Of a DNA stretch of 64,000 bases, positions 82 through 344 are shown piece after piece (the first letter of the stretch is position 1; each line of letters opens with the position of its first letter). The stretch comes from a virus. Taxonomy: Duplodnaviria; Caudoviricetes. The DNA lies in the IMG/VR virus record IMGVR_UViG_3300029928_000006, positions 1 to 64,000 of that record; one strand, written 5' to 3'. The notes beneath the pieces were generated by a model. The model made no database searches. It was not told the origin of the DNA and saw only the letters and a program-made list of their open reading frames with translations. The position numbers and the translations under genes are program-made.

Positions 82-344
82 TGCCCTATGGTGTAATGAT
101 AGCACAGGAGGCTCTTTGGTGGAGCTCTGTTTGGAAACATACAGATGAACATCCCGCTAATTCGGTGAACGTCTCATGTAGATAACGCCGAGCTAGGTTT
201 AAATACCGAGTGTAGAGACTTTATACGGGATACCTAAACGAAAGCATGGTAAAGACAAAGTCCAGCCAACAACAGAAATGGTCGTAGCAATACGATGTTG
301 GAAGAACCCTCTTAGTCTGGGTTTGAATCCTAGTGGGGTGACTA
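82..344 (+). tRNA. Amber-suppressor tRNA (anticodon CUA, probably Gln-charged), split by a group I intron; exon 1 82-115, exon 2 305-341 (+CTA in place of CCA)
   Basis: Joined exons form a full cloverleaf. Acceptor TGCCCTA(82-88)/TGGGGTG(334-340); D stem GTGT(91-94)/GCAC(102-105); anticodon stem GGAGG(107-111)/CCTCT(308-312) with 7-nt loop CT-CTA-AC; T arm CTGGG-TTTGAAT-CCTAG(317-333); discriminator A341. The 5' end resembles bacterial tRNA-Gln. Confidence 0.88.
116..304 (+). mobile_element. Group I self-splicing intron (189 nt, no ORF) in the tRNA anticodon, between positions 35 and 36
   Basis: Exon 1 ends in U and the intron ends in G. P1 GGCTCT(110-115)/GGAGCT(121-126) places a U-G pair at the splice site. 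P3 ATCCCG(151-156)/CGGGAT(226-231); P4 TCGGTG/CGCCGA; P7 GAGACT(215-220)/AGTCC(259-263); P9 CAACA/TGTTG with a TCGTA-GCAA-TACGA hairpin. Confidence 0.9.

Follow-up and report, generated by a model that had tools for sequence, protein, structure and literature searches.

Group I introns that lie in the tRNA genes of bacteria have four classical settings, all of subgroup IC3, which the text of Williams' survey designates Leu.3Ug, fMet.2Ug, Ile2.5Ug and Arg.5Ug (Williams 2020, bioRxiv 10.1101/2020.01.27.920355). The genes concerned, as given there and in the corresponding sections of a 2014 review, are tRNA-Leu(UAA), tRNA-fMet, the Azoarcus tRNA-Ile and the Agrobacterium tRNA-Arg (10.1101/2020.01.27.920355; Hausner 2014, PMC3984707). 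The survey extended these four settings to 21 in bacterial genomes by adding 17 new classes, and its passages on these classes speak of neither phages nor suppressors; they give a cut-off of 18 to 20 bits for tRNA introns, because Rfam's curated score misses such introns. The 2014 review placed every phage group I intron then known in protein genes (Hausner 2014, PMC3984707), and group I introns also interrupt protein genes in the Delta/Suoliviridae group of crAss-like phages (Yutin 2021, PMC7886860). The tRNA introns of Lak phages were called "enigmatic" in passages that report their prediction with the eukaryote mode of tRNAscan and a test against Rfam and leave the class unnamed; for baboon Lak phages these passages report one intron, in tRNA-Tyr(GTA), and make no mention of a split suppressor (Devoto 2019, PMC6784885).

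Some recoded crAss-like genomes have clear TAG or TGA reassignment and no detectable suppressor tRNA (Yutin 2021, PMC7886860). Missing suppressors are likewise reported in a 2023 Crassvirales review (PMC10136315) and a 2025 Zeta paper (PMC12386605), and still in a 2026 preprint (10.64898/2026.08.21.746148). The causes suggested are that the host supplies the suppressor, that the tRNA has diverged strongly or that the assembly is incomplete (PMC7886860, PMC10136315, PMC12386605, 10.64898/2026.08.21.746148). The locus described here is a well-supported phage amber-suppressor tRNA gene split by a group I intron, which would thereby occupy a class of host gene new for tRNA introns and a position outside the classical sites. 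The literature covered, which is an incomplete sample, contained no account of a suppressor tRNA split by an intron.

The window we analyzed is the first 64 kb of the 90,074-bp contig IMGVR_UViG_3300029928_000006, which is approximately 87% complete. Its portal protein shares 89.7% identity with the one from crAss-like phage cr124_1 (Burzaovirus, Suoliviridae). The plus-strand arm requires TAG to be read as sense, mostly as Gln. When TAG was treated as sense, ORFs of at least 100 amino acids covered a fraction of 0.97 of the window, up from 0.59, and the longest ORF grew from 659 to 4159 amino acids, which bears out the claim that the genes downstream of the tRNA need UAG as a sense codon. Glutamine was the commonest residue opposite the 11 TAG codons of the portal gene (19/51 across five relatives, and 7/11 in cr131_1). 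In-frame TAG is almost nil in the minus-strand arm beyond 64.7 kb, and its rarity there points to the usual split between a standard-code early arm and a recoded late arm.

Two tRNA halves lie on the plus strand near the start of the window, on either side of a 189-nt intron (positions 116 to 304), as the original prediction had it. Both exons were delimited with ARAGORN on the in silico-spliced sequence. The 5' exon (82 to 115) supplies tRNA positions 1 to 35: the acceptor strand (82 to 88), U8 (89), the D arm (91 to 105), the anticodon-stem strand GGAGG (107 to 111) and the loop nucleotides C32, U33, C34 and U35 (112 to 115). Positions 36 to 73 come from the 3' exon (305 to 341), with A36, A37 and C38 at 305 to 307, the stem strand CCUCU at 308 to 312, the variable loop at 313 to 316, the T arm at 317 to 333, the acceptor strand at 334 to 340 and the discriminator base at A341, after which CCA is not encoded. 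The predicted start of the gene at position 82 therefore holds, and its predicted end at 344 overshoots by 3 nt. When U115 was joined to A305 in silico, ARAGORN called a 72-nt tRNA(cta) with a canonical cloverleaf and the 7-nt loop CUCUAAC, which is also the loop of the intact homologue MT836720.1. On the native window DNA, ARAGORN called no tRNA, even when introns of 0 to 400 nt were allowed; the CUA anticodon is present only after the group I intron is removed, as had been proposed.

The intron starts UUGGUGGAGCU, ends GGAAG and lies between U35 and A36. Its splice sites are placed at U115/A305 by the agreement of P1 pairing, the junction in MT836720.1 and the intact locus in cr124_1 and cr7_1. 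The uninterrupted homologue MT836720.1 has exactly the predicted junction, GGAGGCTCTAACCCTCT, in an anticodon arm that reads GGAGG-CUCUAAC-CCUCU, and moving either boundary by 1 base loses the match. In cr124_1 and cr7_1, an intact tRNA(CUA), annotated as tRNA-Gln, occupies the syntenic locus directly upstream of the dUTPase gene. In RNA, the spliced junction would join GGAGGCUCU to AACCCUCU. The U115/A305 join had been presented as the only U/G-compatible one; the join stands, but its exclusivity does not, because ARAGORN also accepts 113/301 (anticodon "aag") and 116/304 ("ctt"). We rejected these two joins, which leave a P1 of just 3 bp each and are contradicted by the intronless allele of MT836720.1. 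Brute-force U/G joins with ARAGORN as the splice-site caller gave several alternative anticodons per locus and were also rejected; splice sites were instead set from the pairing in P1, from alleles without the intron and with the covariance model. Apparent "tRNA-Stop(tta)" ochre suppressors obtained from model-defined ends were tRNA-Leu(UAA) genes with one-base boundary shifts.

The split tRNA is the sole credible CUA suppressor in the 90-kb contig. Elsewhere in the contig, ARAGORN gave just a tRNA-Lys(ttt). Two CUA tRNAs appeared among 36 ARAGORN matches to the contig at a very low threshold, and we set them aside as noise on account of their mismatched stems. As the contig is approximately 87% complete, another suppressor could sit in the missing part. 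The expectation that such a gene would be invisible to ordinary tRNA scans proved correct, as ARAGORN is blind to it on native DNA and Rfam is too at its gathering score. That split genes account for "missing" suppressors, as was also proposed, is plausible, since the GenBank record of Bohxovirus PV686213.1 has a comparable split CUA tRNA that is unannotated as a tRNA. Two other tRNA-like features lie beyond the window on the minus strand of the contig: a tRNA-like gene at 68741 to 68824 with good acceptor and T arms and an oversized anticodon loop, and an ARAGORN "permuted tmRNA" call at 84563 to 84914.

The 15-mer TGCCCTATGGTGTAA of the 5' exon occurs in IMG/VR in 52 tRNA-Gln(UUG) genes, 1 tRNA-Gln(CUG) gene and 46 intact tRNA(CUA) genes, and its presence in tRNA-Gln genes marks the suppressor as a derivative of a Gln tRNA. 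Its homology to tRNA-Gln(UUG), its U35 and the alignment of Q opposite TAG lead us to infer that it would be charged with Gln. The intact code-15 suppressors, including those of cr124_1 and cr7_1, are the same Gln-derived tRNA and read TAG as Gln (PMC7886860; Borges 2021, 10.1101/2021.08.26.457843); their genes are continuous and found by tRNA scans, whereas the gene in the window is split and missed. The acceptor stem of the split tRNA has three G-U pairs, including U1-G72, and its D loop is without GG. The tertiary pair 19:56 is G:C in 13 distinct family members, A:U in 4 and mixed in none, and in the tRNA of the window G19 and C56 are both replaced, as A19 and U56. Anticodon-stem pairs also covary across the intron (alignment columns 3/291 and 4/290). 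The paired A19/U56 change and this covariation argue for selection on a folded, working tRNA.

The Rfam Intron_gpI model (RF00028) matched positions 106 to 284, with 27 bits and an E value of 7.5e-5 on 600 nt. The match that the prediction had led us to look for is therefore present but below the Rfam gathering score of 50 bits, a score that 0/11 related loci reached, and for this reason the case for a group I intron rests on comparative structure and covariation. Our own covariance model, R1, scored the intron at 205.9 bits. To assess the fold, we used a set of 12 distinct sequences of the subtype, taken from contigs of viruses and metagenomes, for which P1 to P9, including the P3/P7 pseudoknot, were written out. 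All of the group I parts that had been named for this intron (P1 with its U-G pair, P3, P4, P7, P9 and the terminal G) were recovered: over 54 pairs in 12 sequences, 98.8% of the 648 cells pair, compared with 34 to 40% when the partners are slid. Compensatory changes were seen in 12 pairs, and 0/500 shuffles scored as high. A 15-sequence alignment across subfamilies, analyzed with RNAalifold, gave P1, P2, P3, P8, P9 and the anticodon stem, and 19 of its 27 pairs are kept through changes on both sides, the pairing of P1 guide and exon among them.

P1 (110 to 126) pairs the exon sequence GGCUCU (110 to 115) with the guide GGAGCU (121 to 126) over 6 bp and has the U115-G121 wobble at the splice site, and this U-G pair is kept throughout both sequence sets (12/12 and 15/15). 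The guide tracks the exon, as CUCU with GGAG, CUGU with GCAG in tRNA-Tyr and CCCU with GGGG in two metagenome copies. In the split suppressor tRNAs at L255 (10310 to 10511, minus strand) and L261 (2785 to 2986, minus strand), loop position 33 is C and not the near-universal U, and the guide GGGG keeps P1. P2 (127 to 144) is capped by a GAAA tetraloop (134 to 137) and has compensatory changes in 4/6 pairs. P3 (151 to 156 with 226 to 231) has them in 5/5 pairs across the 15 sequences and encloses P4 (162 to 167 with 186 to 191) and P5 (171 to 174 with 180 to 183), which are both invariant, and P6 (193 to 198 with 205 to 210), which has one compensatory pair. The P7 pseudoknot (215 to 263) pairs G215 and G217 to U220 with A259 to C263 around a bulged A216 and is the presumed guanosine-binding helix. 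Its pairs form in 12/12 sequences and never vary, and the support for P7 consists of this pairing and a match to the Rfam consensus AGACU...AGUC. Within the P7 span lies P8 (233 to 234 with 248 to 249, and C239-G244), with a GAAA loop at 240 to 243 and a CCUAAA...CAUGG motif that we liken to a tetraloop receptor. P9 (266 to 271 with 296 to 301) opens into a three-way junction and is invariant within the subfamily and compensatory across subfamilies; its branches are P9.1 (273 to 274 with 279 to 280; GAAA loop), with 1 compensatory pair, and P9a (282 to 286 with 291 to 295; GCAA loop), with 3. All 12 subfamily members have the terminal (omega) G304, and its position is fixed by the intronless allele. 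For P10 we saw by eye at most 3 bp (G118-C308, G119-C307 and U120-A306) and do not claim this helix.

Taken together, P3, P6 and P8 covary, and a conserved core of P3 to P8 with the P3/P7 pseudoknot can be drawn; P4, P5, P7 and P9 are invariant within the subfamily, so that covariation is silent on them there. The minimum free energy fold of positions 110 to 309 had a z-score of -1.14 and placed a wrong hairpin instead of P7, and such a fold is uninformative for a pseudoknotted ribozyme. L2 is GAAA, L9.1 and L9a are GNRA loops, and the IC3 contacts of L2 with P8 and of L9 with P5 are Azoarcus features. The 189-nt intron may share the compact P2 to P9 layout of the Azoarcus IC3 intron, and its placement in IC3 is tentative. 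Judged by its sequence and comparative structure, the intron is an IC3-like group I intron without an ORF.

The intron resembles the IC3 introns of bacterial and plastid tRNA genes in being small and ORF-less, in its place in the anticodon loop, and in its U-G pair in P1 and final G, as well as in its P2 GAAA loop, its receptor-like P8 motif and the J6/7-P7 string GUAGAGACU. It differs from them in that its host gene is a phage-encoded stop suppressor and that it sits after U35, a site that would be "4Ug" in Williams' numbering as set out in that text, and not after position 33, 34 or 36. The site does lie outside the four classical settings, as the original prediction stated, but it is not unique to suppressors, because tRNA-Tyr(GUA) introns in gut Clostridia metagenome-assembled genomes (MAGs) and in phages also follow U35. 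These belong to the same family (110 to 155 bits with R1) and occupy the same position, with CUGU/AAA exons and a GCAG guide in place of CUCU/AA(C/A) and GGAG; unlike the intron of the window, they interrupt ordinary sense tRNAs, mostly in bacterial genomes. The introns described by Yutin and colleagues occur in the same phage group and are of the same ribozyme class, but lie in mRNAs and leave the decoding machinery untouched (Yutin 2021, PMC7886860).

We searched for further copies in phages, metagenomes and bacteria. A junction pattern, CUCU/U...G/AA(A/C), found split suppressors in 21 IMG/VR contigs, a pattern for the core added more than 118 loci to these, and a subtype-specific 22-mer was present at 13 metagenome loci on 12 contigs. 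Every locus of the window's intron subtype (18/18) is in a CUA tRNA, which shows a guide adapted to that loop and not regulation. Model R1 recovered 111 family members in 100 phage loci; in silico splicing of its members gave tRNA-Tyr(GUA), tRNA-Asn(GUU) and tRNA-Lys(CUU), all split after U35, and members are also found in many tRNA-Leu(UAA) genes of the classical type. In MAGs of gut bacteria, the core pattern further occurs at more than 120 loci. Among the 80 that we examined (L272 to L351, mostly Clostridia), 27 were tRNA-Tyr(GUA)-like with CUGU/AAA exons and the guide GCAG, and 0 were CUA. Prevotella phage Lak-B1 (MK250020.1, approximately 412033 to 412357; L004, 1501 to 1825) has a homologous tRNA(CUA), with CUCU/AAA exons, into which a 245-nt intron related to that of the window is inserted at the same place; the record is unannotated there, and the same copy occurs in three IMG/VR contigs (L123 to L125).

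Sequence comparisons separate the history of the intron from that of its host genes. Between the window and L252, the introns are 97.4% identical and the tRNA exons 52.8%; for L134, the values are 97.9% and 84.9%. The tRNA and intron together are 95.8% identical to those of L035, compared with 72 to 84% for the neighbouring genes. Intron identity so far above that of exons and neighbours fits recent lateral spread among different suppressor tRNAs. The polymorphism is that of a mobile intron, which is absent from cr124_1, cr7_1 and MT836720.1 and whose identities are discordant with those of its host genes. We found no endonuclease ORF within the 189-nt intron. Suppressor tRNAs of other phages hold, at exactly this U35/A36 site, a group I intron of approximately 1 kb with a different core and an HNH ORF (L133, 1132 to 2103; L070, L127, L128, L131, L135 and L136; and L271). 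The last of these is Bohxovirus PV686213.1 (65192 to 66245), in which the HNH intron splits a CUA tRNA and the only annotation is "hypothetical protein."

Several loci have peculiarities of their own. An A, and not G, precedes the 3' exon in L120, L271 (approximately 2540 to 2560), L147 and L176 (...UUUAAUA/AAC and ...GUAGUACA/AAC); these copies may be dead, may use a terminal base other than G or may have a mis-set boundary. Family members lie at most a few kilobases apart in L156 (four copies) and in L159, L167, L170, L187 and L129 (two each), and from this clustering in single contigs some phages seem to carry several intron-bearing tRNA genes. In L111 (approximately 30 to 150 of the stretch as oriented), the 5' half of a Gln-like tRNA runs straight into a second, complete tRNA, an arrangement that recalls the "tRNA inside a tRNA intron" of Lak phages. 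The genome of cr4_1 is a recoded Suoliviridae genome, and a gap in its annotation (L267, NC_055893.1, 68693 to 68934, minus strand), where R1 gave 56 bits, may conceal a split suppressor, although we recognized no flanking tRNA halves there.

The reading we favor, and consider likely to be correct, is that the locus is a working gene for a Gln-accepting amber tRNA(CUA), split between U35 and A36 by an ORF-less IC3-like intron that is a mobile passenger. The original prediction went further and saw in the split anticodon a switch of the genetic code, in which the rate or regulation of intron removal would time the mature suppressor and, through it, the TAG-rich late and lysis genes. This timing idea found no support, and we regard such a switch as unlikely. 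The unspliced precursor cannot decode, but this would be true of any split gene. The gene is the sole credible CUA tRNA in the contig, and recoding is restricted to the plus-strand arm; yet sister phages whose genomes share this recoded layout use an intact tRNA at that locus. Group I splicing requires guanosine and Mg2+, which makes a link to the state of the host conceivable, and G110 and G111 are contested between P1 and the top of the anticodon stem, which could slow folding. The 189 nt, however, show no regulatory feature beyond a compact ribozyme and no sign of regulated splicing, and the intron bears the marks of a mobile element: it moves among unrelated suppressor tRNAs, its site is also used by the HNH-bearing intron, and its relatives are found in ordinary tRNAs for Tyr, Asn, Lys and Leu. 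Moreover, small introns of this type in tRNAs, such as that of Azoarcus, self-splice efficiently in vitro at 37°C (PMC13168695), which also speaks against a switch. That the intron has been co-opted as a timer or host-state sensor, with its rate set by guanosine nucleotides, Mg2+ or competition between P1 and the anticodon stem, seems to us similarly improbable; if it were so, the rate of group I splicing would govern the level of mature suppressor and, with it, when the TAG-dense lysis and late genes come on.

It is very unlikely that the gene is dead, with the suppressor inactivated by the insertion or by later decay and another one located in the unassembled 13% or in the host. The incompleteness of the contig, the low Rfam score, the three acceptor G-U pairs, the D loop without GG and the related copies that have no G before the 3' exon would fit such decay. 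Set against them is the fact that substitutions in the 12 relatives are overwhelmingly compensatory, in intron and tRNA alike, and that in the window the loss of G19 is matched by the change of C56 to U56. Neither the U-G pair of the 5' splice site nor the terminal G varies within the subfamily, all 18 subtype loci are in CUA tRNAs, and at the split CUA loci checked (14 of the subtype included) nearby ORF cover gains when TAG is read as sense. We give equally little credence to an intron that is useful in some other way, either because occupancy of the homing site shields the tRNA from the endonucleases of co-infecting phages or because the excised RNA has a role. An HNH-endonuclease intron does target exactly the same site in other phages, and the ORF-less intron is better conserved than the flanking genes in the comparison with L035, but recent lateral spread and ribozyme constraint explain this conservation equally well.

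Our preferred reading of the intron is thus that of a mobile and in essence selfish passenger, which would home to the CUCUAA(C/A) loop of phage suppressor tRNAs. What counts against the passenger reading is that the intron is without an endonuclease gene for its spread. A passenger can still be co-opted, and the absence of the intron in relatives leaves room for a regulatory effect here. For a working gene with a passenger intron, we predict the following course of events. The precursor would be transcribed from the front end of the plus-strand arm in which TAG is recoded, and the intron would fold, with P1 formed by nucleotides 30 to 35 of the anticodon arm and loop and the guide GGAGCU. Guanosine would attack after U115, and the freed 3'-OH of U115 would then attack after G304, so that CU would be ligated to A and the anticodon made whole. 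The tRNA would be finished by RNase P, by trimming of its 3' end and by addition of CCA and, once charged with Gln, would read UAG in late, structural and lysis genes. The 189-nt intron is predicted to be self-splicing, and we infer that its splicing would be constitutive and not regulated. The alternative code of this phage would then hinge on a ribozyme step, and the same arrangement conceals the suppressor from annotation. It offers a concrete, checkable answer to at least part of the missing-suppressor cases, in which the gene would be there with its anticodon split by a group I intron. A tRNA-intron covariance model combined with exon matching would be a remedy for the annotation of recoded phages.

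Downstream of the split tRNA, a 203-amino-acid ORF that is free of TAG (363 to 974) precedes the dUTPase gene. This ORF is missing at that place in cr124_1, cr7_1 and L035, and it adjoins the split tRNA in L209. We considered it as a free-standing homing endonuclease and rejected this, as it gave only a subthreshold PI-PLC-X match (21.3 versus 23.1 bits) and no PHROG. The dUTPase gene (980 to 1771) is itself split by a second group I intron at approximately 1235 to 1457, with an Rfam score of 53.6 bits, above the cut-off; at the gathering score, this dUTPase intron is the sole Rfam match in the window. The two halves of the gene, 980 to 1270 and 1508 to 1771, correspond to positions 3 to 71 and 71 to 129 of the Pfam profile. 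In cr1_1, a similar stretch adjoining the dUTPase gene is annotated as an intron-encoded HNH endonuclease.
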